A stretch of DNA of 64,000 bases. Origin: Candidatus Cryptobacteroides sp. (GTDB taxonomy: Bacteria; Bacteroidota; Bacteroidia; Bacteroidales; UBA932). The DNA is taken from the NCBI GenBank assembly GCA_045117755.1, contig JBGUOB010000021.1, forward strand, positions 510 to 64,509, given 5' to 3'. Positions 1,750-61,106 of this stretch are shown piece after piece; position 1 is the first letter of the stretch; every line of letters begins with the position of its first letter. The notes under the pieces were generated by a model that saw only the letters and a list, made by a program, of their open reading frames with translations, searched no databases and was not told the DNA's origin. The position numbers were made by a program, and so were the translations under genes.

Positions 1750-3105
1750 TTAAAATTCAACATCCAGGTTTTCGATTTCCGTGGCAACCTGCTTGAGGAA
1801 GCGGGTGGCTTCGCCGCCGTCGATGGCGCGGTGGTCATAGGTGAGGCTCAGGCCCATGTAGGGGACAAAGGCCACCACACCGCCGCCCAGGTCTTTCGGA
1901 CGCGGGACGATGGTGCCCACGCCCAGGATGGCGCTCTGGGGTACATTGATGATGGGGGTGAACCACTCCACGCCGAATCCGCCCAGGTTGGATACCGTGA
2001 AGGAAGCGGCTTCCGGAGAAAGCAGGTCCGGATTGATGCTGCCCTTCTTGCTGTCTTCGGCCACCTTCTTGAGGTTCTTGGCCAGGCCGGTGATGTTCAG
2101 CTCATCTGCGTGCGGGACGGCCGGAACCATGAGGCCGCGTTCTGTATCCACGGCCAGGCCCAGGTTCACGCTCTTGAAGAGGCGCATGGCGTCTCCCAGG
2201 CAGTGGGAATTCAGGTTGGGGAACTTCTGCAGGGCCTTGATGACGGCATAGCAGACAAAGTCGTTGATGGTGATGTTGACATCCACCTTACCCTCTTCGA
2301 AGGCCTTCTTGGCTTTCTTGCGGAGCGCCTGGACCTTGCGGGCGTCGGCACCCAGCATATGGGTGAGCTGGGCGGAGTTCTGGAGGGAGTTGTACATGCT
2401 CTTCGCAATGAGTTTGCGCATGTTGGACATCTTCACCACTTCGAACTCGGCGCCTTCTCCGGCAATGTCGGTGTGGTTGGCTTTCCAGACCTTCAGGTCG
2501 GCGCCCTTCACGGCACCGTTCAGGCCGCTTCCCGTTCCGGGCGATGCAAGTCCGCCGTCGGCCATCCTGGCCTTGGCCAGTCCCGTCAGGGTACCCTGGG
2601 CGGCGGCGGCGGCTTCCACGTCGCGGGCGATGATGCGTCCGTGAGGGCCTGTTCCGGCAACGCGGCTGGTATCCACACCCTTTTCAGCGGCTATCTTGCG
2701 TGCGCGGGGCGATGCGGGTGCGCCGGAGGGTACTCCCTCAGCAACCTGTGCCACCCTCGGCATCATAAGAGGGAGGGATCCAGCCTCCTGGCTGGGAGGG
2801 GTCGAGCTTTGCGAGACGGTGGTCGAGGGAGTACCTGCATTGGGGGCGAATTCGGCAAAGGACTCGCCGGGTTCGCCGATGACCATTACATTCGTCAAAA
2901 CGGGAATCTCGTCCCCGTCCTTGAAAAAGACGGCAAGGACGGTTCCCGCCACTTTTGCTTCTTCCTCGAAGGTCGCCTTGTCGGTTTCATAACCGAACAG
3001 GATGTCCCCTACAGCGACCTGGTCACCCGGTTTTTTTTTGAATTCGGAGACGATGCAGCTCTCCACGGACTGGCCCTGTTTGGGCATAATGACGACATGT
3101 GCCAT
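1750..3105 (-). CDS. dihydrolipoamide acyltransferase (E2) of a 2-oxoacid dehydrogenase complex
   Basis: Single lipoyl domain (ETDKAT), E3-binding domain (ASPRARKIA...GTGPHGRI), catalytic DHRAIDG. Confidence 0.94.
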   Translation of the reverse strand: MAHVVIMPKQGQSVESCIVSEFKKKPGDQVAVGDILFGYETDKATFEEEAKVAGTVLAVFFKDGDEIPVLTNVMVIGEPGESFAEFAPNAGTPSTTVSQSSTPPSQEAGSLPLMMPRVAQVAEGVPSGAPASPRARKIAAEKGVDTSRVAGTGPHGRIIARDVEAAAAAQGTLTGLAKARMADGGLASPGTGSGLNGAVKGADLKVWKANHTDIAGEGAEFEVVKMSNMRKLIAKSMYNSLQNSAQLTHMLGADARKVQALRKKAKKAFEEGKVDVNITINDFVCYAVIKALQKFPNLNSHCLGDAMRLFKSVNLGLAVDTERGLMVPAVPHADELNITGLAKNLKKVAEDSKKGSINPDLLSPEAASFTVSNLGGFGVEWFTPIINVPQSAILGVGTIVPRPKDLGGGVVAFVPYMGLSLTYDHRAIDGGEATRFLKQVATEIENLDVEF

Positions 3106-14481: not shown

Positions 14482-14555
14482 TGGCAGGGGAAGCAGGAAT
14501 CGAACCCACATTGACGGTTTTGGAGACCGCTGAATTACCATTATTCTATTCCCCT
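14482..14555 (-). tRNA. tRNA-Trp(CCA)
   Basis: AGGGGAA acceptor stem, anticodon loop CTCCAAA, T-loop GTTCGATTC, encoded 3' CCA. Confidence 0.96.
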
Positions 14556-14607
14556 GTATAAGGCGGAGCGGGTCGCGAAACCCCCTCCGCCTCTGTGCTA
14601 ATCGAAA

Positions 14608-15795
14608 TTAGTCAAGGATCTTGATCACCTGACCGGCACCGACCGTACGGCCACCCTCACGGATAGCGAAACGGAGGTTCTCGTTCAGAGCAACCGGAGT
14701 GATGAGCTGGACGTCGATCTCCACGTTGTCACCAGGCATAACCATCTCGACACCGGCCGGGAGAGTGATCTCACCGGTAACATCCAGGGTGCGGATGAAG
14801 AACTGAGGACGATACTTGTTGTGGAACGGCGTGTGACGGCCACCCTCTTCCTTCTTCAGAACGTAGATCTGACCGAGGAAGTGCTTGTGCGGGGTGATGG
14901 AACCCGGCTTGGCGATAACCTCACCACGCTTGACTTCCTTCTTGTCGATACCACGGAGGAGGAGACCCACGTTGTCACCAGCCTCACCCTGATCGAGGAG
15001 CTTGCGGAACATCTCGACGCCAGTGACGACGGTGCTCTTCGGCTTGTCGTTGAAACCGACGATCTCAGCGGCGTCGTTCACGTGAACGGTACCCGTCTCG
15101 ATACGGCCGGTAACCACGGTACCACGACCGGTGATGGAGAAGATGTCCTCGATAGGCATCAGGAACGGCTTCTCGTTCTCACGGACCGGAAGGGGAATGT
15201 ACTCATCGACAGCGTCCATGAGCTCCATGACCTTGGCCTCCCACTCAGGCTCGCCGTTGAGGGCGCCGAGGGCGGAACCACGGATGACGGGAGCGTTGTC
15301 ACCGTCGAAGTCATACTTGCTGAGGAGGTCGCGGACCTCCATCTCGACGAGGTCAAGCATCTCAGCGTCGTCCACGAGGTCGACCTTGTTCAGGAAGACG
15401 ACCATCTTCGGAACGTTCACCTGCTTGGCGAGGAGGACGTGCTCGTTGGTCTGAGGCATCGGACCGTCGGTAGCAGCAACCACCAGGATAGCGCCGTCCA
15501 TCTGGGCAGCACCGGTAACCATGTTCTTCACGTAGTCGGCGTGGCCCGGGCAATCGACATGCGCATAGTGACGATTGGCGGTCTGGTACTCGACGTGAGC
15601 GGTGTTGATGGTGATACCACGCTCCTTCTCTTCAGGGGCGTTATCAATCTGATCGAAAGACTTGACTTCGCTCAGACCCTTGGAAGCCAGCACCTTGGTG
15701 ATAGCTGCGGTCAGAGTGGTCTTGCCATGGTCAACGTGGCCGATCGTGCCAATGTTGACATGCGGTTTATCCCGCTTGAAAACTTCTTTTGCCAT
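14608..15795 (-). CDS. tuf: elongation factor Tu
   Basis: [21 protein letters not shown]; 395 aa. Confidence 0.99.
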
Positions 15796-15852
15796 AATAT
15801 TACGTTTAAAAGTTTGTTTACAAATTAAAACCGGCTTTTCAACCGGCTTTTG

Positions 15853-15924
<72 letters not shown>

Positions 15925-15931
15925 AATATTT

Positions 15932-16006
15932 TGGAGCGGGGTAGGAGAATCGAACTCCCATTTCCAGCTTGGAAGGCTGGCATAATAGCCATTATACGAA
16001 CCCCGC
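15932..16006 (-). tRNA. tRNA-Gly(TCC)
   Basis: GCGGGGT acceptor, anticodon arm CCAGC-CTTCCAA-GCTGG, encoded CCA. Confidence 0.95.
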
Positions 16007-16043
16007 TTGTTGGAGTAGTCGTTCCGTTCTACTTCCGCTTCAG

Positions 16044-16125
16044 TGGGCAAGGATGGATTCGAACCACCGAAGGTAAAACCAGCAGATTTACAGTCTGCCC
16101 CATTTGGCCACTCTGGTACTTGCCC
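16044..16125 (-). tRNA. tRNA-Tyr(GTA)
   Basis: GGGCAAG acceptor, anticodon arm GCAGA-CTGTAAA-TCTGC, long variable arm. Confidence 0.95.
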
Positions 16126-16149
16126 AATTATTTTACATTGCTGATCGTG

Positions 16150-16223
16150 AGCCGATGGAGGGAATCGAACCCACGACCTTGAGATTACAAATCACACGCT
16201 CTAGCCAACTGAGCTACATCGGC
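16150..16223 (-). tRNA. tRNA-Thr(TGT)
   Basis: GCCGATG acceptor, anticodon loop TTTGTAA, T-loop GTTCGATTC. Confidence 0.94.
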
Positions 16224-18157: not shown

Positions 18158-19528
18158 TTACTGTTTCTTGATGTTCGGCAGTTCGAGGCCGTAGCCCTTC
18201 TTGCGGTCTTCCTTCTTCAGCAGGAAGCTGAAAATGAAGGCGAGCACGCCGAAGCTGGAGAAGACCAGCATCGGGATGAAGTAGCCGCCGGTCGAGCCGC
18301 GCAGCGAGCCGATCAGCATCGGCACGAGGCAGAGGCCGATGTTCTGCACCCAGAAGATGAGGCAGTAGGCCGAACCGAGGATCTTCTCGTCGATGATCTT
18401 CGGCACGGACGGCCACAGGGCCGCGGGCACGAGCGAGAAGCTCACGCCCAGGATGACGATCAGCGTGACGGCCAGACCCTTGGACGGGAAGGCGGGCAGC
18501 AGGAAGGCGAAGCTGAGGTGGCAGGCGATCATGATGATCGAGCCGATCATCAGCATCGTGGCGCCTTTGCCCTTGTGGTCCAGGAAGATGCCCAGGACCG
18601 GAGTCAGTACCATCGCCAGGATGGGGAAGACGCTGAACAGGCGGGCGGCCGTGGCGGCGTCGATCTGCAGGGTCTCTTCCAGGAAGTTCGGCGCGTAGCG
18701 CTGGAACGGGAAGATGGCACTGTAGTACAGCACGCAGAGCAGAGCCACGATCCAGAACATCTTGCTCTTGAAGATGGCGCCGAGGTCGCTCACGTGGAAC
18801 TCATCCTCCGGGGATTTCTCTTCCGTGGCGAGGCCGGCGGCGACCAGCTGCTTGTCGAACTTGCTGTCCATGAAGGCGAAGATGATGAAGTTGACCAAGC
18901 CGATGCAGAGCAGGGCGCCGCAGAATCCGACCGGAGCCATGATCGAGCCGTCGAACTTGGCGGAGATGATCGGGGCGATCCACATCACGCCGAACACGCC
19001 CAGACGGGCGATGGCCATCTCGAGGCCCATGGCGAGGGCCATTTCCTTGCCCTTGAACCATTTGGCGAGAATCTTGGAGACGTTGGTGCCTTCCATCTCG
19101 CAGCCGCAGCCGAAGATCATGAAGCCGAGCGAGGCCATCTTGGCGCTGGCGGGCATCTCGACCCACCAGGAGCCGAGCCACTGGGCGAGGGCGGTGGTCT
19201 GGAACCAGTCGCTGACGCCGACGAATTTGATGCCGGCGCCGAGGACCATCAGGCCCGCCGACAGGATGCCGGAGAACTGGACGCCGAGCTTGTCGAGGAT
19301 GATGCCGGCGAGAATCAGGAAGCCGCAGACGTTGAGGATATATTCGGATGCGGCATAGGTGCCGAACACGCCGCTGTTCCAGCCGAGGTTGGTCTCGACG
19401 AGGGACTTGAGCGGGGACATGACGTCCACGAACATGTAGGCGAAGAACATCATCAGCGCCACGAGGACCAGGACGGTCCAACGCGCCACCGGATTGTCGT
19501 TCATCAGCCGTTGAATCTTTTCAGTCAT
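18158..19528 (-). CDS. MFS transporter (substrate unknown)
   Basis: 456 aa, about 12 hydrophobic helices, GIILDKLG and GIFLDHKG loop motifs. Confidence 0.9.
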   Translation of the reverse strand: MTEKIQRLMNDNPVARWTVLVLVALMMFFAYMFVDVMSPLKSLVETNLGWNSGVFGTYAASEYILNVCGFLILAGIILDKLGVQFSGILSAGLMVLGAGIKFVGVSDWFQTTALAQWLGSWWVEMPASAKMASLGFMIFGCGCEMEGTNVSKILAKWFKGKEMALAMGLEMAIARLGVFGVMWIAPIISAKFDGSIMAPVGFCGALLCIGLVNFIIFAFMDSKFDKQLVAAGLATEEKSPEDEFHVSDLGAIFKSKMFWIVALLCVLYYSAIFPFQRYAPNFLEETLQIDAATAARLFSVFPILAMVLTPVLGIFLDHKGKGATMLMIGSIIMIACHLSFAFLLPAFPSKGLAVTLIVILGVSFSLVPAALWPSVPKIIDEKILGSAYCLIFWVQNIGLCLVPMLIGSLRGSTGGYFIPMLVFSSFGVLAFIFSFLLKKEDRKKGYGLELPNIKKQ

Positions 19529-19550: not shown

Positions 19551-19678
19551 GGCGGTTCCGTCCTCCCACTCCGGGACCCGTAGCCACCCTCGGCTTCGTA
19601 AGAGGGAGGGGCCCGCTGACGCAGTCAGTGGGAGGGGTCGCGAAGCGACGGTATCCGGAGTGGGAGGACGGAACTGCC
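19551..19678. repeat. ~128-nt multi-stem palindromic element, copy A (intergenic)
   Basis: 24-bp terminal inverted repeat (19551-19574 / 19655-19678, one G-T pair) enclosing internal hairpins; core homologous to 29372-29489 in the opposite orientation. Confidence 0.85.
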
Positions 19679-19692
19679 AAAATGGTAATCAA

Positions 19693-20241
19693 TTAGAACG
19701 GGAGATCGTCGGTCGGACCTTCGTCGGCGACGGGTGCTGCGGGTGCGACCGGGGCGGCCTGCGGGGCGGGCTGCTGGTACGCGGGCTGCTGCGGGGCGGG
19801 AGCGGGCTGCTGATAGCCGCTCTGGCGCTGGTAGCCACCCTGCTGGGGATAGCCGCCGCCCTGCTGGTCAGCCGGGTAGCCGGCGCCGTCGCCGTCGCGG
19901 CGGCCCAGGAGCTGCAGCGTGTCGACGTTGATCTCGGTGGTGTATTTCTCGGCGCCCTGGGCGTCGGTGTATTTGCGGGTGCGGAGTTTACCTTCGATGT
20001 AGAGCTGCGTGCCCTTGCGCACGAAGCGCTCGCACACGTCGGCGGGCTGGCCCCAGGCGACGATGTTGTGCCATTCCGTATTCTCGCGGGTTTCGCCGTT
20101 GCGGTCGCGGTAGCGCTCCGAGGTGGCGAGGGTGAATGTGGCGACTTTGCGGCCCTGATTGCCAGGGTTGTTTCCTTCGAGGTAACGTACATTGGGGTCT
20201 CTTCCAACGTTACCGATCAGCATGACTTTGTTCAGTGACAT
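19693..20241 (-). CDS. ssb: single-stranded DNA-binding protein
   Basis: True start MSLNKVMLIGNVGRDP at 20241; TEWHNIV, IEGKLRTRKY, Q/P/G linker, DDLPF tail. Confidence 0.97.
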   Translation of the reverse strand: MSLNKVMLIGNVGRDPNVRYLEGNNPGNQGRKVATFTLATSERYRDRNGETRENTEWHNIVAWGQPADVCERFVRKGTQLYIEGKLRTRKYTDAQGAEKYTTEINVDTLQLLGRRDGDGAGYPADQQGGGYPQQGGYQRQSGYQQPAPAPQQPAYQQPAPQAAPVAPAAPVADEGPTDDLPF

Positions 20242-20321
20242 AATACATAAAATTTTAGTTTCACAAGATAGGGATTTTTTGCCGAATTGCACGTATATTT
20301 GCCCTGCAATCTTCCGAAAAG

Positions 20322-29194: not shown

Positions 29195-30084
29195 TGGCCG
29201 AGGTCATCACGTCGCCTTCGAATCCGAAGATCAAACGGCTCCTCGCGTTGCAGCAGAAATCGTCTGCGCGGCGCGAGGCCGGTCTTTTTGTCGTCGAGGG
29301 TCAGCGTGAGCTTCAGCATTGCATCGATGCCGGGTTTGACATCGATACTATTTTCGTCTGCACTTCGCTCGGCGGAGGCGCTCCCCTGCAAAACTTCGCG
29401 CTTCGCGCTCATCCCTCCCAACCTGGCGGTTGGGCCCCTCCCGTTCACGAGGCCACGGGCGGCCACGGTTTTGCTGGGGAGGCCTCCGCACTCGCTGCGT
29501 CGCAGACGAAAGTCTTCGAGGTGACGCCGGAGGTGTATGCAAAGATTGCAATGCGAGAGGGGACGGAAGGCATCATGGCTGAAGTCAGGACACCCGAGAG
29601 AAAGTTGGCGGATCTGGAACTGCCGGAGAATCCGTTGATCGTTGTGCTGGAGAGCGTCGAGAAGCCCGGAAATCTGGGCGCGGTGCTGCGCAGCGCCGAT
29701 GCGGCGGGGGCCGATGCGGTGCTGATCTGCGATCCGCTGACCGACCTGTGGAATCCGAACCTGATTCGCGCGTCGATCGGGGCCGTGTTCACGGTGCCGT
29801 GCGTGGCCTGCAGTTCTGCCGAGGCCATTGCGTTCCTGAAGGCGCGCGGCATCCGCATCCTGACGGCGCAGCTGCAGGATTCTTCCCTCTATTATGATTG
29901 CGACATGACCGTCGGCACTGCGCTCGTGATGGGCACGGAAGCGACCGGGCTGACCGATGCCTGGCGCGCCGCGGCCGACGCACATATCCGTATTCCGATG
30001 CTCGGCCGCCTGGACTCGCTGAACGTGTCCGTGTCAGCCGCCATCCTCCTTTTTGAAGCCGTCCGGCAGCGACAGAATGGATAG
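29194..30084 (+). CDS. TrmH/SpoU-family RNA 2'-O-methyltransferase with in-frame palindromic insertion
   Basis: EKPGNLGAVLRSA, MGTEATGL, IPMLGRLDSLNVSVSA; low-homology 49-aa stretch between FVC and KVFEV. Confidence 0.92.
   Translation: MAEVITSPSNPKIKRLLALQQKSSARREAGLFVVEGQRELQHCIDAGFDIDTIFVCTSLGGGAPLQNFALRAHPSQPGGWAPPVHEATGGHGFAGEASALAASQTKVFEVTPEVYAKIAMREGTEGIMAEVRTPERKLADLELPENPLIVVLESVEKPGNLGAVLRSADAAGADAVLICDPLTDLWNPNLIRASIGAVFTVPCVACSSAEAIAFLKARGIRILTAQLQDSSLYYDCDMTVGTALVMGTEATGLTDAWRAAADAHIRIPMLGRLDSLNVSVSAAILLFEAVRQRQNG
29372..29489. repeat. ~118-nt multi-stem palindromic element, copy B (in-frame in CDS)
   Basis: Terminal inverted repeat 29372-29394 / 29468-29489; core homologous to copy A at 19551-19678. 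Confidence 0.85.
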
Positions 30085-30819: not shown

Positions 30820-33585
30820 CTAAAACAGGGTCGGTTCGTCGAACAGGTCACCGGGGAGGTCCGGGACGTCTTCGATGGCCGGAGATTCCGGGTCTTCGCC
30901 CGGAATGACTGCAGCGGGGCCCGGAGTGGCTACCGGTTCGTCATTCGTCGGCACCTCCAGCTCGTCATTCGCCGGCTCGACCGGCGAATCTCCTTCCTCC
31001 TCCTCTTCCGGCTCATCCACGATGAGCGGCTCGACGAAGCGCACGCTCTTGACCTCGCCGCGCTCGGCGCACTTCTTGCCCTTGGCGGCGTAGCCCTTCT
31101 TGCCGATCCATTCCTCGGCCTCGATGGCCTCCGGCTCCTTGTCCTCGAGTTTCCAGACCACCTCGTAGCGGGCGTGCCTGTCGCCGCTGAGGTCCACCAG
31201 GTAGGACTTGGGGGCGTCGGAGATGAAGCTGAGCGGGGTGTTGTCGCTGACCACGAAGGAGAAGCGCTTGACGTAGAAACTCTTGACCGCGCCGTCCCAG
31301 TAGAGGGCGGTGAAGGTCTTGTCCGGGTCGAACTTCTCGATCAGCAGGACATCGCCCTGGTAGCGGTTGACCAGGTCGAAGGAGGTGGTGTAGAAGGTGC
31401 CGTTCTTGAACACGGCGAGCACCTTGTCGTCATCCTTGAACTGGCCGAGGTACAGGCCGTGGCCGTCCTCGTTGAGTTTCTGGATGTCGGTGTCGTACCA
31501 GATGTCCTTGCCGGTGATGGTGCTCACGCCCTTGCTCTTGAGGGTGATGTTGCGGATGGCGTTCTTGCTCACGAGGTTGCCGCGGGCCGTCTTGCTCTTG
31601 ACCGCGAGGGTGGAGAAGTCGTACTCGAAGCTGGTCTTCTTGAGCTTCGGCTTGGGGCGCAGGGCCACGCGCACCGTCTCGGCCTCGCCGTTGTGGTTGG
31701 CGGTGAACCAGACGATCTGCGAGCCTTCCTCGCCGGTGGTGATGTCGTATTCCTTGTCGCGCGTGATGGAGGTCACGGCAAAGCGCTTCGCGTAATAGAT
31801 GGAGCTCTTGCCTTCGCGATAGATGACGTTGTAGATGGTGCGGGAGTCGCCGCGGTTGAACAGGCCCACGTACAGCAGGTCCTTGCCGAAGAAGGCCTTG
31901 TCTTCCACCTTGGTGATGCGGTACTTGCCGTCCCGGCCGATGACGATGACCTCGGAGAGGTCGGAGCAGTCGCTGATGAACTCGCCGCCGTCGTCGCGCT
32001 TCAGGCCGATGCCCACGAAGCCCTCCGCCAGGTTGGCGTACAGCTTCGCGTTGTTGTTGATGACCTTGGTGGCGGCGATGGTCTCGAAGCCGGTCAGTTC
32101 GGTGCGGCGCGGGTAGTCCTTGCCGTATTTCTTCTTCAGGGCCTTGAACCAGTCGATGGTGTAGCGGTCGATGTGCTCGATGTTGTCACGCACGACGGCC
32201 ATCTGCTCCTCGAGGGCGAGGATCTTCTCGTCGATGGCCTTGGTGTCGAACTTGGAGATCTTGCGCACCGGCTTCTCCACGAGCTTGAGGATGTCCTCCA
32301 TCACGATCTCGCGGTGGAAGAGGTCCTGATACTGCTTCATCTGCGAGAAGATGTCTTCGAGCTGGGTCTCCCAGTCTTTCTGGTCCTGCTCGAGGACCTT
32401 GTAGATGCGGTTCTCGAAGAAGATGCGCTCCAGGGAGCTGTAATGCCAGTCGGCCTCCAGTTCATCCAGCTTGATCTGCAGCTCCTGGAGCAGCAGGTCG
32501 CGGGTGTGGTAGGTACCGTACTCGAGGATGTCGTGGACCGTCAGGAACTGCGGTTTGTTGTCCTTGATCACGCAGGCGTTCGGCGCGATGTTGACCTCGC
32601 AGTCGGTGAAGGCGTACAGGGCGTCGATGGTCTTGTCCGGGGAGACGTCGTTGGGCAGGTGGATGAGGATGTCCACCTTGTCGGTGGTCATGTCCTCGAT
32701 CTTCTTGATCTTGATCTTGCCCTTGTCCTTGGCCCGGAGGACGGAGTCGATGATGTCCTTGGTGTATTTCCCGTAAGGGATTTCCGTGATGGCCACGGTG
32801 TTCTTGTCGATCTTCTCGATGCGGGCGCGCACCTTGACGGAGCCGCCCCGCTTGCCCTGCATGTACTTGCTGCAGTCGGCGAAGCCGCCGGTGGGGAAGT
32901 CGGGGTAGATCTCGTAGGGCTTGCCCTCGAGGATGGCCACGGACGCGTCGAGCAGCTCGTTGAAGTTGTGCGGGAGAATCTTGGATGCGAGACCCACGCC
33001 GATGCCTTCTGTGCCCTGCGCGAGCAGGAGCGGGAAGCGCACCGGGAGTTCGGTCGGCTCCTGGTTGCGGCCGTCGTAGGAATTCATCCAGTGCGTCACC
33101 TTCGGGTCGAAGACCACCTCCTTGGCGAACTTGCTGAGCCGGGCCTCAATGTATCGGGGCGCGGCGTTGGAGTCGCCGGTGAGGATGTTACCCCAGTTAC
33201 CCTGACAGTCCACGGTGAAGCCTTTCTGGCCCAGCTGGACGAGGGCGCCGAGGATGGACTGGTCGCCGTGCGGGTGGTACTGCATGGCCTGGCCGACGAT
33301 GTTGGCCACCTTCGTGAAAGCGCCGTCGTCCATCTTGTACATGGCGTGCAGCACGCGCCGCTGCACGGGCTTGAGTCCGTCCACGATGTGCGGCACGGCC
33401 CGGTGCAGGATCACGTAGGAAGCGTAGTCCAGGTACCAGTCCTTGAACATGCCGGAGAGCTTGAACTTGTGTGCGTCCGCCTCCAGCATCTTGTCAAAGC
33501 GGCCCGAGGATTCCCCTTCGTCGTCAATGACCTTGTCGTCGTCTTCGATGATCTCTTCTTCGGTGATGATATTCTCTTCTTCCAT
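30820..33585 (-). CDS. parC: DNA topoisomerase IV subunit A (Bacteroidetes type)
   Basis: DGLKPVQRR, HPHGD, catalytic AAPRYIEARL; 921 aa with acidic tail. Confidence 0.88.
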   Translation of the reverse strand: MEEENIITEEEIIEDDDKVIDDEGESSGRFDKMLEADAHKFKLSGMFKDWYLDYASYVILHRAVPHIVDGLKPVQRRVLHAMYKMDDGAFTKVANIVGQAMQYHPHGDQSILGALVQLGQKGFTVDCQGNWGNILTGDSNAAPRYIEARLSKFAKEVVFDPKVTHWMNSYDGRNQEPTELPVRFPLLLAQGTEGIGVGLASKILPHNFNELLDASVAILEGKPYEIYPDFPTGGFADCSKYMQGKRGGSVKVRARIEKIDKNTVAITEIPYGKYTKDIIDSVLRAKDKGKIKIKKIEDMTTDKVDILIHLPNDVSPDKTIDALYAFTDCEVNIAPNACVIKDNKPQFLTVHDILEYGTYHTRDLLLQELQIKLDELEADWHYSSLERIFFENRIYKVLEQDQKDWETQLEDIFSQMKQYQDLFHREIVMEDILKLVEKPVRKISKFDTKAIDEKILALEEQMAVVRDNIEHIDRYTIDWFKALKKKYGKDYPRRTELTGFETIAATKVINNNAKLYANLAEGFVGIGLKRDDGGEFISDCSDLSEVIVIGRDGKYRITKVEDKAFFGKDLLYVGLFNRGDSRTIYNVIYREGKSSIYYAKRFAVTSITRDKEYDITTGEEGSQIVWFTANHNGEAETVRVALRPKPKLKKTSFEYDFSTLAVKSKTARGNLVSKNAIRNITLKSKGVSTITGKDIWYDTDIQKLNEDGHGLYLGQFKDDDKVLAVFKNGTFYTTSFDLVNRYQGDVLLIEKFDPDKTFTALYWDGAVKSFYVKRFSFVVSDNTPLSFISDAPKSYLVDLSGDRHARYEVVWKLEDKEPEAIEAEEWIGKKGYAAKGKKCAERGEVKSVRFVEPLIVDEPEEEEEGDSPVEPANDELEVPTNDEPVATPGPAAVIPGEDPESPAIEDVPDLPGDLFDEPTLF
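30881..30909 (-). repeat. REP-like palindrome (GTC-tagged), in parC tail
   Basis: Minus strand reads GTCATTCCGGGCGAAGACCCGGAATCTCC. Confidence 0.7.
30963..30993 (+). repeat. REP-like palindrome (CGTC-tagged), in parC tail
   Basis: CGTCATTCGCCGGCTCGACCGGCGAATCTCC. Confidence 0.85.
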
Positions 33586-46064: not shown

Positions 46065-46886
46065 ATGCGCTATCTTGTCAAGCTTTCGTACAACGGCGCG
46101 GACTTCTGCGGTTGGCAGATCCAGCCCGATGCCCCGAGCGTCCAGCAGGCGCTCGAAAGCGCCCTGTCCACCCTCCTGCACGCCCCCGTGGCCGTGACCG
46201 GCGCAGGCCGGACCGATACGGGCGTCAATGCAATCGGCTACGTCGCGCATTTTGACGCAGCCGGGGATCTTGACACGCATCAATTATGCTACAAATTAAA
46301 TGCCATTCTGCCCCGTTCGGTGGTGATTCATGAGATCGCTCCGGCGGCCCCGGATTTCCACGCCCGCTTCGACGCCGCGCGGCGCGAATACACCTATTTC
46401 CTGCATCGGGTGAAGGATCCGTTCGTGGACGCATTTTCCTATCTCTACACCTTCCCCGGCGTGGATTTCGAGCGGATGAACGAGGCCGCGCAGGCCCTGC
46501 TGGGACAACACGATTTCCGCTGCTTCGAGAAGACCGGCGCCGACTCCAAGACCTCGCTCTGCACGGTCTCGGAAGCGGCCTGGCACCGCTACACGCCCAC
46601 GCATCTGCAGCTGACCGGGCGTGAGGGGGGAGAAGACTACTGGTATTTCCGCATCGCCGCCGACCGGTTCCTCCGCAACATGGTCCGGGCCGTCGTCGGC
46701 ACCCTGCTCGAGGTCGGGCGCGGCAAGCGCACCGTCGCCGACTTCCAGTCCCTCGTCCTCCCGGTTTCGTCCTCCGCCGGCTCCGATTCGTCATTCGCCG
46801 GCTTGACCGGCGAATCTCCCGCCCGCTCCCTGGCCGGCGAATCCGTTCCCGGCAAAGCGCTCTTCCTCAGCGAGGTCCGTTACTGA
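46065..46886 (+). CDS. truA: tRNA pseudouridine(38-40) synthase with in-frame REP insertion
   Basis: GWQIQP, GRTDTGVNA, FHARFDA, ADRFLRNMVR; -7 element TAATTTTG at 46047-46054. Confidence 0.96.
   Translation: MRYLVKLSYNGADFCGWQIQPDAPSVQQALESALSTLLHAPVAVTGAGRTDTGVNAIGYVAHFDAAGDLDTHQLCYKLNAILPRSVVIHEIAPAAPDFHARFDAARREYTYFLHRVKDPFVDAFSYLYTFPGVDFERMNEAAQALLGQHDFRCFEKTGADSKTSLCTVSEAAWHRYTPTHLQLTGREGGEDYWYFRIAADRFLRNMVRAVVGTLLEVGRGKRTVADFQSLVLPVSSSAGSDSSFAGLTGESPARSLAGESVPGKALFLSEVRY
46789..46819 (+). repeat. REP-like palindrome (CGTC-tagged), in truA
   Basis: CGTCATTCGCCGGCTTGACCGGCGAATCTCC; 1 nt different from the copy at 30963. Confidence 0.88.
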
Positions 46887-59736: not shown

Positions 59737-59766
59737 GTCATTCGCCGACTTGATCGGCGAATCTCC
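59737..59766 (+). repeat. REP-like palindrome (intergenic copy)
   Basis: GTCATTCGCCGACTTGATCGGCGAATCTCC; compensatory G-C to A-T change in the stem. Confidence 0.85.
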
Positions 59767-59768
59767 GG

Positions 59769-61106
59769 CTAATTGACAATGACGATGACGTTGTCGATGC
59801 CGAGGCGGACGCGGAGCCACTGCTCGATCCGTTCGCGCCCCTCCTCCTGCAGGGGCTGGACGCTGTGGATGATGGCGACGACGGCGGCGGAAGCCTGGCC
59901 GTCGGAAGCCTCCACGCGCTGGCCGCGGGTGAGCGTCACCTCGGTCACGCCGTCATACTGGGCGGCGATTTCCCGGGTGATCAGCTCGGAAGGCAGCTGC
60001 TGCGCCTTGTAGAATTCGATGGCCGTCGAGAGCGAATCCACCTGACCCTTCAGGCGGCGGATTTCCTCGTTGTGGCCGTCCATCAGGCCGCGGATGAGCT
60101 CGGACTCGGACATGATTTCATTCTGGTAGGCGGCATCCTCGTGGATGACGATCTGGGCCCGCGTGATGCCGACTTCCTCGGCGTTGAGGTAGAGCCGCTC
60201 CCGGGCGGAGGATTCCAGTTTCTCGCCGGCCAGGTACAGCTCGAGGGTGGAGGGCTTGCTCTCGATGTTGGTGTGATAGTCGTAGATGATGCTCTTGCCC
60301 AGGTTCTTGTTCTGCTCGACGAGCAGGCGGGCGCTGCGGGCGAAATTGTTGTCCCGGATCATCTCCATGGCCGAGAACACGCTCGGGACCAGGAGGAGGA
60401 TGAGGATCAGGGTGATCCAGCGTGCGCTGCGCCGGCTCTTGAGCTCATCTTCGCCCACGGGGGTGAAGTGCAGCAGGTAGCGGACCGAGACGAAGGTGGC
60501 CAGGGTGATGAAGACGGTGTTGATGATGAAGAGGTAGAAGGCGCCGACGATGAAGTGCCAGTCCAGGTGCGATAGGCCGTAGCCCACCGTACACAGCGGC
60601 GGCATGAGGGCGGTGGCGATGGCCACGCCCGGAATCACGGTGCCGCCCTTCTCCTTGCGGGAATTCTCCAGGATGCCGGCGAAGCCGCCGAACAGGGCGA
60701 TGAACACGTCGTAGAGCGTCGGGTTGGTGCGCGCCAGCAGCTCGGTCTGGTGCTCCAGCTCGAGCGGGGAGACCAGGTAGAAGAGGGTGGAGGCGAGGAT
60801 GCTGATCACCACCATGACGGCGAAATTCTTGAGCGCTTCCTTGACCAGCGCGGTGTCGTTGGTGCCCAGGCCCAGGCCGAATCCGAGGATCGGGCCCATC
60901 ACCGGGGAGATGAGCATGGCGCCGATGATTACCGGGATGGAATTGAGGTTGAGGCCCACCGACGCGATGATGATCGCGCACGCGAGAATATAGACGTTGG
61001 GACCGCGGAAATGGATGCCGTTGCGGATGTTGATCGCCGCTGCATCTACGTCCACGTGGTCCCGCATGTTGACCAGAATCCTGAGAAATCGAGAAAACTT
61101 GTTCAT
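59769..61106 (-). CDS. DUF389 membrane protein
   Basis: IIGAMLISPVMGP, ELLARTNPT, PGVAIATALMPPL. Confidence 0.9.
   Translation of the reverse strand: MNKFSRFLRILVNMRDHVDVDAAAINIRNGIHFRGPNVYILACAIIIASVGLNLNSIPVIIGAMLISPVMGPILGFGLGLGTNDTALVKEALKNFAVMVVISILASTLFYLVSPLELEHQTELLARTNPTLYDVFIALFGGFAGILENSRKEKGGTVIPGVAIATALMPPLCTVGYGLSHLDWHFIVGAFYLFIINTVFITLATFVSVRYLLHFTPVGEDELKSRRSARWITLILILLLVPSVFSAMEMIRDNNFARSARLLVEQNKNLGKSIIYDYHTNIESKPSTLELYLAGEKLESSARERLYLNAEEVGITRAQIVIHEDAAYQNEIMSESELIRGLMDGHNEEIRRLKGQVDSLSTAIEFYKAQQLPSELITREIAAQYDGVTEVTLTRGQRVEASDGQASAAVVAIIHSVQPLQEEGRERIEQWLRVRLGIDNVIVIVN

Follow-up and report, generated by a model that had tools for sequence, protein, structure and literature searches.

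The palindromic sequence at positions 29372-29489 of a 64,000-nt stretch of Candidatus Cryptobacteroides DNA (contig JBGUOB010000021.1; the whole stretch is called the window below) is very probably one copy of a dispersed family of nested-palindromic repeats, which has inserted in frame in the gene for an RlmR-like RNA methyltransferase and is read through as a loop of the protein. Palindromic repeats that lie in frame within genes have been described in Rickettsia and in other bacteria (PMC10969869, PMC3733652). The repeat described here is an undescribed family of nested-palindromic coding DNA repeats resembling the Rickettsia palindromic elements (RPE); no description of it in Bacteroidales was found in the literature searched, which consisted of open-access papers only.

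The host open reading frame (ORF), flanked in the window annotation by lysS and an aroE-like gene, encodes 296 residues without interruption. Its SpoU methylase domain is complete (PF00588, profile positions 2-142 of 142, E 8e-38), and the three SPOUT motifs, NLGAVLRSA, LVMGTEATGL, and IRIPMLGRLDSLNVSVSAA, all align to the solved structure 4x3l. The N-terminal L30e/MRM3-like substrate-binding domain (PF22435) is matched only over profile positions 1-49 of 84, ahead of the insert. The insert peptide, TSLGGGAPLQNF...ALAASQT, sits between the FVC and KVFEV blocks of the methyltransferase. Three statements of a first-pass annotation made from the sequence alone are thereby confirmed: that a strongly folding hairpin lies inside an uninterrupted TrmH/SpoU ORF, that it separates exactly these two blocks, and that the downstream SPOUT motifs are intact. 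A sequence search of the PDB returned Thermus thermophilus TTHA0275/RlmR (4x3l and 9h1k, E 4e-55), and also 1ipa, as the nearest solved homologues. In the alignments to the solved Thermus chains, residues 5-55 and 99-296 of the query match, and residues 56-98 stand opposite about nine residues. The top Foldseek match of the predicted model is likewise RlmR (9h1k, 37% identity, TM-score 0.78 normalized to the target), and without the insert the model also superposes on other L30e-SPOUT methyltransferases, including AviRb and RlmB. RlmR is thus the best PDB match by both sequence and fold, at 37% identity and below the NCBIfam equivalog cut-offs. Among solved structures, the host enzyme appears closest to Thermus RlmR, the 23S rRNA U2552 2'-O-methyltransferase; its substrate specificity is putative.

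The insert was modeled as a disordered loop of the N-terminal domain, in line with the structural check that had been proposed for it. In the AlphaFold model (43-sequence alignment, mean predicted local distance difference test [pLDDT] 68), residues 61-103 have pLDDT values below 50 and no secondary structure and lie between strands 49-55 and 106-110. The insert therefore behaves, in this model, as a disordered, Gly/Pro/Ala-rich surface loop of about 38 residues in the N-terminal RNA-binding domain. One of its predicted tryptic peptides is AHPSQPGGWAPPVHEATGGHGFAGEASALAASQTK. An assembly artefact is excluded, because a protein identical to that of the window occurs on five independent contigs and its 90%-identity cluster has 32 members.

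Orthologues retrieved by protein search (69-95% identity) fall into length classes of 258-260, 291-297, 300-330, and 349-350 residues, and it is the stretch from FVC to KVFEV that accounts for all of the variation in length. We compared the linker DNA at 81 species-level orthologous loci (labeled L or P below). The linker measures 24-60 nt (8-20 aa) in distant orthologues and 138-246 nt in the approximately 20 closest species. The statement in the first-pass annotation that homologues have a shorter linker is thus correct, both for distant species-level orthologues and for the solved homologues. Nor are the long alleles made up of a conserved segment of similar length that has no relation to the intergenic copy in the same window (see below): at least 14 of the closest species carry a recognizable family core at the methyltransferase site. 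Two core subfamilies, A and B, are represented. Subfamily A stands in sense orientation in the window, L002, L014, L011, and L013, and subfamily B in sense orientation in L003, L053, and L024 and antisense in L005-L007 and L015. Two elements are present in L009 and L010, partial elements in L008 and L044, and arm-only remnants in L004. In L010 (3001-3987, a TrmH orthologue with a 246-nt linker), two tandem short palindromic units (..GGAGGTCCATCCGAATGTACCTCCGGC..) also lie in frame, 3' of the family element.

The reading frame across this site is strictly kept. The N- and C-terminal blocks share one frame in 81 of the 81 loci, and the occupied alleles come in 10 distinct lengths, from 138 to 246 nt, all of them multiples of three and stop-free. 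This pattern argues that the element is read through and translated and disfavors its excision or bypass. Family copies average 2.8 stop-free frames out of six, so that an open frame at the methyltransferase site is not automatic. Moreover, the site is read in at least five registers or orientations among the orthologues, giving wholly different peptides (GGAPLQNFALRAHPSQ..., HGSQPRQTSGCAGPLP..., AAAPENRSHPRLRKREGP..., and GGLPCKTVATRGFVNGG...). Because the peptides differ among registers and between both orientations, it is the open frame that is selected and not any particular peptide, which itself is unconstrained.

Table 1. Features of the window that belong to the repeat family or to its methyltransferase host
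Feature	Position	Strand	Basis
TrmH/SpoU-family RNA 2'-O-methyltransferase, RlmR-like, 296 aa	29194..30084	+	Uninterrupted ORF; Pfam; PDB and Foldseek matches
Palindromic element, in frame, coding roughly residues 60-99	29372..29489	+	Folding; family profile match, E 3e-15
Full imperfect palindrome	29352..29511	+	Minimum free energy (MFE) structures; flank inverted repeat common to L001 and L003-L007
Outermost 10-bp stem, TTTCGTCTGC with GCAGACGAAA (FVC and QTK codons)	29352-29361 with 29502-29511	+	MFE structures
5' outer arm GGCGGAGGCGCTCCCCTGCAAAAC, copy-specific sequence	29371..29394	+	Pairs with 29468-29489
3' outer arm GTTTTGCTGGGGAGGCCTCCGC	29468..29489	+	Folding; compensatory changes in relatives
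Conserved 73-nt core	29396..29468	+	Alignment of 55 copies; covariation; low divergence
Core hairpin A, GCGC-TTC-GCGC	29398-29408	+	55-copy alignment
Core hairpin B, CCCAACC-TGGC-GGTTGGG	29417-29434	+	55-copy alignment
Core motif GGGCCCCTCCC	29432-29442	+	55-copy alignment
Core hairpin C, CCCGT with ACGGG	29440-29444 with 29455-29459	+	55-copy alignment
Core GGCC with GGCC	29451-29454 with 29461-29464	+	55-copy alignment; covariation
Intergenic copy, subfamily-B core, unrelated 34-bp arms	19551..19678	-	Inverted repeats; alignment; profile match, E 8e-15
Third copy, more degenerate, in frame	2729..2835	-	Profile match, E 1e-10; host ORF 1750-3105 (-)

A nucleotide profile of the core finds three family copies in the window, one intergenic and two coding (Table 1), with core matches at 29390-29468 (E 3e-15), 19578-19665 (E 8e-15), and 2745-2820 (E 1e-10). 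The claim that the intragenic hairpin and the intergenic one are the same element therefore stands for the core; it does not extend to the outer arms, which are unrelated in sequence among all three copies. The intergenic copy is flanked by a single-stranded DNA-binding protein (SSB) gene (19693-20292, -) and a major facilitator superfamily (MFS) transporter gene (18158-19528, -). The third copy lies in the gene for a 2-oxoacid dehydrogenase E2 acyltransferase and encodes about GTPSTTVSQSSTPPSQEAGSLPLMMPRVAQVAEGVPS in the linker that joins the lipoyl domain to the E3-binding domain; Pfam places Biotin_lipoyl at residues 4-75 and E3_binding at residues 130-164, on either side of the insert.

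Scanning one genome per GTDB species with the core motif GGGCCCCTCCCNNTNACGNNGCC returned at least 119 stretches, all of them, among the matches listed, in metagenome-assembled genomes (MAGs) of uncultured Bacteroidales from rumen and from horse, chicken, and human gut; several of these MAGs are named Candidatus Cryptobacteroides. The repeat is thus restricted to one clade of Bacteroidales, uncultured inhabitants of gut and rumen grouped around 'Candidatus Cryptobacteroides'. A phage origin was rejected, since just two core matches occur in a collection of 2.9 million viral contigs. Most family copies are intergenic. About a quarter of the evaluable copies (23 of 93) stand in a frame that stays open over 300 nt or more to either side, and 10 of 10 tested host ORFs, which encode DnaX, RNase R, an FAD-dependent protein, an HI0933-like protein, TldD/PmbA, a FolC-like ligase, RibF, TilS, YgiQ, and an RlmI-like methyltransferase, have full Pfam domain sets around the insert and are real genes. 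The first-pass annotation had proposed that an RPE-like insertion process creates peptide loops; the dispersed family, with its in-frame copies in genuine genes, bears it out.

The element is a nested palindrome. A hairpin does occupy the extent first given for it, 29372-29489, but the palindrome is longer and takes in host codons on both sides (Table 1). As RNA, 29350-29510 folds to -84.6 kcal/mol (z -5.1; 0 of 200 shuffles as good), and as single-stranded DNA, 29345-29518 folds to -50.7 kcal/mol (z -6.3). Across the family, the arms have a median length of 26 bp (range 13-51), 92.8% Watson-Crick pairing, and copy-specific sequences; the 5' arms usually finish ..AAAC and the 3' arms usually start GTTT... 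The core, aligned and tested for covariation over 55 copies, has the order hairpin A, (A/C)TCCCTCCCA, hairpin B, GGGCCCCTCCC, hairpin C, and C(N)ACGG. Its three helices are paired in 95.5% of alignment cells, and shuffled and slid controls score far lower on pairing and on covariation.

Further details of the family alignment are worth recording. A four-pair helix, NGCC with GGCN (alignment columns 110-113 with 120-123; window 29451-29454 with 29461-29464), covaries at N (G-C 26, A-T 20, T-A 7, C-G 1); its overlap with the 3' strand of hairpin C implies alternative folds or a knot-like fold. The hairpin C loop base that precedes ACG (C/T; column 105, window 29446) tracks the C/T in GGG(C/T)GG (column 119, window 29460), C with C and T with T, with one A with T and one exception, across stem backgrounds; this is not Watson-Crick covariation. 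Besides subfamilies A and B there is a variant with an extended hairpin B (about 45 extra nt with a conserved tip, ..CTGCAAGCNNGCTTGC..), seen in L003, L053, and L007 at the TrmH site and in L085, L092, and L103; in the TrmH orthologues it adds about 14 residues, giving proteins of 310-311 aa. In the copy at approximately 6900-7100 of L145 the arms are perfect and unusually long (about 38 bp, CAGGCTGATAGAAATAAGAGACCCGCATCCGACAGAC...), and a 20-bp perfect hairpin stands in place of hairpin A; its predicted fold is -135.7 kcal/mol.

Orthologous copies reveal how slowly the core changes. Between the window and L201 and L203 (93-95% protein identity), fourfold-degenerate sites are 25-28% diverged and the arms 16-18%, in contrast to 2 changes at the 73 core positions (2/73 core versus 41/144 fourfold; Fisher p 1.2e-6). 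Both of these core changes make up one compensatory pair in hairpin B, and two further compensatory pairs lie in the arms, so that double changes keep the arms paired in these close relatives. Between the window and L002 the core differs at 1 of 73 positions and fourfold sites at 40%; for L014 the figures are 11 of 73, mostly at paired positions, and 49%. The same holds for the RNase R copy (L099 versus L146), with 4 of 69 core positions changed and 58% divergence at fourfold sites. Thus the core evolves about ten times more slowly than the fourfold-degenerate sites of the same gene. What keeps it so is either purifying constraint or gene conversion and concerted evolution among copies, acting at the nucleotide level and independently of frame.

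Several observations weigh against reading the insert simply as a translated copy of a selfish, mobile repeat. The strong in-situ conservation of the core is unlike that of a purely selfish, decaying repeat and points to function or ongoing gene conversion. No transposase was found in 1.46 Mb around family copies by phmmer with an IS200 TnpA query, a weak test given how distant the REP-associated tyrosine transposases (RAYTs) are, and no parent insertion sequence (IS) of the repeat was seen. At the methyltransferase locus, no empty site that is clearly virgin and has the same flanks was recovered, and we infer insertion from the distant orthologues; likewise, we infer translation from frame conservation alone. 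Finally, the methyltransferase model is of only moderate quality, as its mean pLDDT and alignment depth indicate. More speculatively, the core could be a functional DNA module under selection in all copies, for instance the binding or processing site for a domesticated hairpin-recognizing enzyme or for a structure-specific DNA-binding protein, in a long-term partnership like that of REPIN and RAYT; the self-correcting arms would then make the intragenic copies invertible cassettes that switch a host protein between two loops. We regard this extension as possible, though rather unlikely.

Opposite orientations at one site need no independent insertions. Once reverse-complemented, the L006 linker can be aligned over its full length to that of L003, host-codon stems included, so an in-situ inversion explains the two orientations. 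L205 (sense) and L206 (antisense) are likewise exact inversions of one another, in which even an asymmetric one-base bulge of the arm is inverted. In both pairs the length is unchanged and the ORF preserved. Such pairs raise the question of whether the element is an intragenic inverton, in which the arms are recombination sites for a programmed, reversible switch between two loop peptides within a population. The inverted-repeat arms of 20-30 bp around a core of approximately 75 nt have the right form, both orientations occur at the same site in relatives with ORF and length kept, and intragenic invertons occur in Bacteroides (PMC10028968). However, the inversions are fixed differences between genomes that diverge by 6-9% elsewhere in the gene and not variants within a strain, no recombinase is linked to the element, and the encoded peptides are low-complexity and unconstrained. 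A selfish repeat is also the better fit for a family that has a quarter of its copies in unrelated genes and the majority between genes, and template switching is by itself able to invert the spacers that inverted repeats enclose (PMC8604942). A programmed switch is therefore improbable in our estimation.

A functional RNA is less probable again, to the point that we give it very little weight. Under this explanation the hairpin would act in the mRNA, for instance as a site for RNase III, by pausing translation, or as a stabilizer, and would be conserved for that reason. The predicted RNA fold is very stable, the stems are kept paired by compensatory changes, and the other two window copies also stand in the transcribed orientation relative to their gene context. 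In contrast, the three core helices show 120 double changes and 0 one-sided changes of the G-U type over the 55 copies, and arm mismatches (G-T 34, A-C 64, other 101) are not enriched for wobble pairs; RNA-level selection was rejected on these grounds. Relative to host transcription, both core orientations are common among verified coding copies (about 12 versus 8). The strand asymmetry in raw fold energy was discounted as support for an RNA function, as it stems from the shared core and is not independent evidence. A known RNA family was rejected as well: a gathering-threshold Rfam scan of the window matched five tRNAs only, and permissive scans of the intragenic and intergenic copies gave only chance matches to miRNAs and long noncoding RNAs. 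The lack of wobble intermediates in the core, the lack of a wobble excess in the arms, and the use of both orientations together point to an element that behaves as a DNA-level rather than an RNA-level structure.

The flanks and the short alleles bear on how the element arrived. The near-direct repeats CACT(T)CGCT reported on either side of the hairpin are present (CACTTCGCT at 29361-29369 and CACTCGCT at 29489-29496), but their interpretation as a target duplication was rejected. Direct repeats that flank 89 family copies, whose boundaries are approximate, do not exceed in length those obtained when flanks from different copies are paired as a control; the short allele of L001 already has GCTTCCGCT, the counterpart of the right-hand repeat, where the window has GCACTCGCT; and the flanks of the methyltransferase element are related as inverted, not direct, repeats. 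The first-pass annotation had suggested that orthologues would define the empty allele. Distant orthologues are indeed short, as are the linkers of the Thermus structures, and these two are the basis for taking the short state as ancestral; the short alleles of close relatives (L001, L004, and P0101/L204), on the other hand, retain pieces of the arms and were rejected as the pre-insertion state. In P0101/L204, the retained 3' arm (CGGGGAGGTCTCCGC) and a TTGC microhomology at the junction suggest a slippage deletion, not a virgin site. These three short alleles look like hairpin-associated deletions, and the element thus appears to invert and decay in place.

Another explanation is that the hairpin was made in place by template-switch mutation of the native linker, with no mobile repeat involved. 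The outermost stems are host codons (FVC and QTK), the 5' arm resembles short-allele sequence (GGCGGCRACGCTYCC versus GGCGGAGGCGCTCCCC), and template switching can create hairpins (PMC8794818). However, the 73-nt core is common to unrelated loci (E 1e-10 to 1e-15) and to more than 100 other genome sites, which excludes a local origin of the core; template switching can account, at most, for growth of the outer arm parts. This local origin is marginally less credible even than the RNA explanation. Least credible of all is that the transcript loses the element, or the ribosome skips over it, to leave a protein without the loop: a strong hairpin between the similar short sequences CACTTCGCT and CACTCGCT superficially recalls excision or bypass signals, but that flanking repeat is not conserved in relatives (e.g., L203), and removal would free both length and stop codons, contrary to the 10 stop-free, multiple-of-three lengths in several registers of a family whose frames are not automatically open.

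The preferred explanation, a dispersed repeat inserted in frame and translated, can be put as a sequence of steps. The family would disperse by a copy-or-transposition mechanism that acts on a DNA hairpin and leaves no target duplication. One copy would have landed in the loop-coding region of the N-terminal RNA-binding domain, to be transcribed and translated straight through, and the enzyme presumably tolerates the result, a loop of about 38 residues that is disordered and lies on the surface. The host gene would then be under selection only for an open frame and a length divisible by three. Pair changes would arise as Watson-Crick double substitutions without G-T intermediates, and the perfect arms, in-situ inversions, and partial deletions may all be products of slippage and template switching when inverted repeats are replicated. 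Template switching is known to homogenize the arms of inverted repeats and to invert the spacers between them (PMC8604942, PMC8794818).

Among known systems, RPE-1 and related Rickettsia elements are the nearest in behavior, and the likeness is one of behavior only. Both are dispersed palindromic repeats of 100-150 bp with a large fraction of copies in frame in unrelated housekeeping genes, leaving the hosts unbroken, and the RPE insert is predicted to lie on the protein surface (PMC10969869), as the modeled disordered loop would here. In contrast, RPE are described as encoding a conserved peptide in a preferred frame, a description that the Bacteroidales repeat fails, with at least five registers and both orientations. 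The host phylum and base composition also differ, and in the Bacteroidales repeat only the central core is conserved, with copy-specific arms, that core being far more conserved than neutral sites in orthologous copies. Intragenic repetitive extragenic palindromic (REP) sequences, the GTAG- or CGTC-tagged repeats of Di Nocera et al. 2013 (PMC3733652), are likewise GC-rich, mostly intergenic palindromes, some copies of which code for 20-80 residues in replication, repair, and RNA-metabolism genes, much as here. REPs and REPINs also share a DNA hairpin as the likely substrate and the lack of target duplication. However, REPs are single stem-loops of 20-40 bp with a fixed GTAG/CGTC tag, whereas the Bacteroidales unit spans 110-160 nt with three inner hairpins. 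Identity with the tagged REPs was rejected, because the would-be tag GT-N-G is variable and covarying (N is G in 26 copies, A in 20, T in 7, and C in 1). In REPINs the arms are the conserved part, and here they are the variable part; REPINs are mobilized by RAYT transposases, none of which was found near the Bacteroidales copies in the weak search described above.

[quoted passage not shown] MITEs share terminal inverted repeats with a parent IS and make target-site duplications; in contrast, the termini of the Bacteroidales copies are not conserved between copies, and no duplication signal was seen in 89 of them. The intragenic invertons of Bacteroides (PMC10028968) have in common an ORF segment flanked by inverted repeats, whose inversion recodes the protein with the frame kept. 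Invertons, however, are flipped by enzymes within clonal populations, whereas the Bacteroidales repeat is high-copy and shows orientation differences only between genomes. Finally, the evolution of coding DNA by template switching (PMC8604942, PMC8794818) matches in arm homogenization and spacer inversion; it accounts for the upkeep and flipping of the arms, but not for the origin or dispersal of the conserved core.

Palindromic repeats in frame have largely been regarded as an oddity of Rickettsia, apart from scattered cases of REP and ERIC sequences in other bacteria. The same habit is seen here at large scale in abundant uncultured gut and rumen Bacteroidales, and some of the genes affected are essential (those for DnaX, RNase R, TilS, RibF, and an rRNA methyltransferase). 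For MAG annotation and orthologue alignments, this means unexplained indels of 30-60 residues, and for structure predictions, spurious disordered loops. The family also raises the questions of what keeps a 73-nt core near-invariant while the surrounding synonymous sites diverge by 25-58%, and why the arms are free in sequence yet complementary. Should the core have a host or enzyme partner, it would be a new REPIN-like system in Bacteroidota, and should the inversions happen within populations, they would link selfish repeats to intragenic recoding. If the core is a functional module, the clade would possess a genome-wide system that serves at once as a conserved DNA signal and as a source of diversity in protein loops.

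The window holds other features unrelated to the family. A second, 33-nt hairpin repeat, GTCATTCGCCGGCTTGACCGGCGAATCTCC, with a 9-bp stem, occurs at 30964-30996, 46790-46822, and 59737-59769. Its first copy lies in the acidic C-terminal tail of a ParC/GyrA-like ORF (30820-33585, -) and its second in the C-terminal part of a TruA-like ORF (46065-46886, +), both named by reading the translations; the third comes after a terminator-like hairpin. The five tRNAs that are the sole Rfam matches in the window form a gene cluster at 14485-16223 (-).

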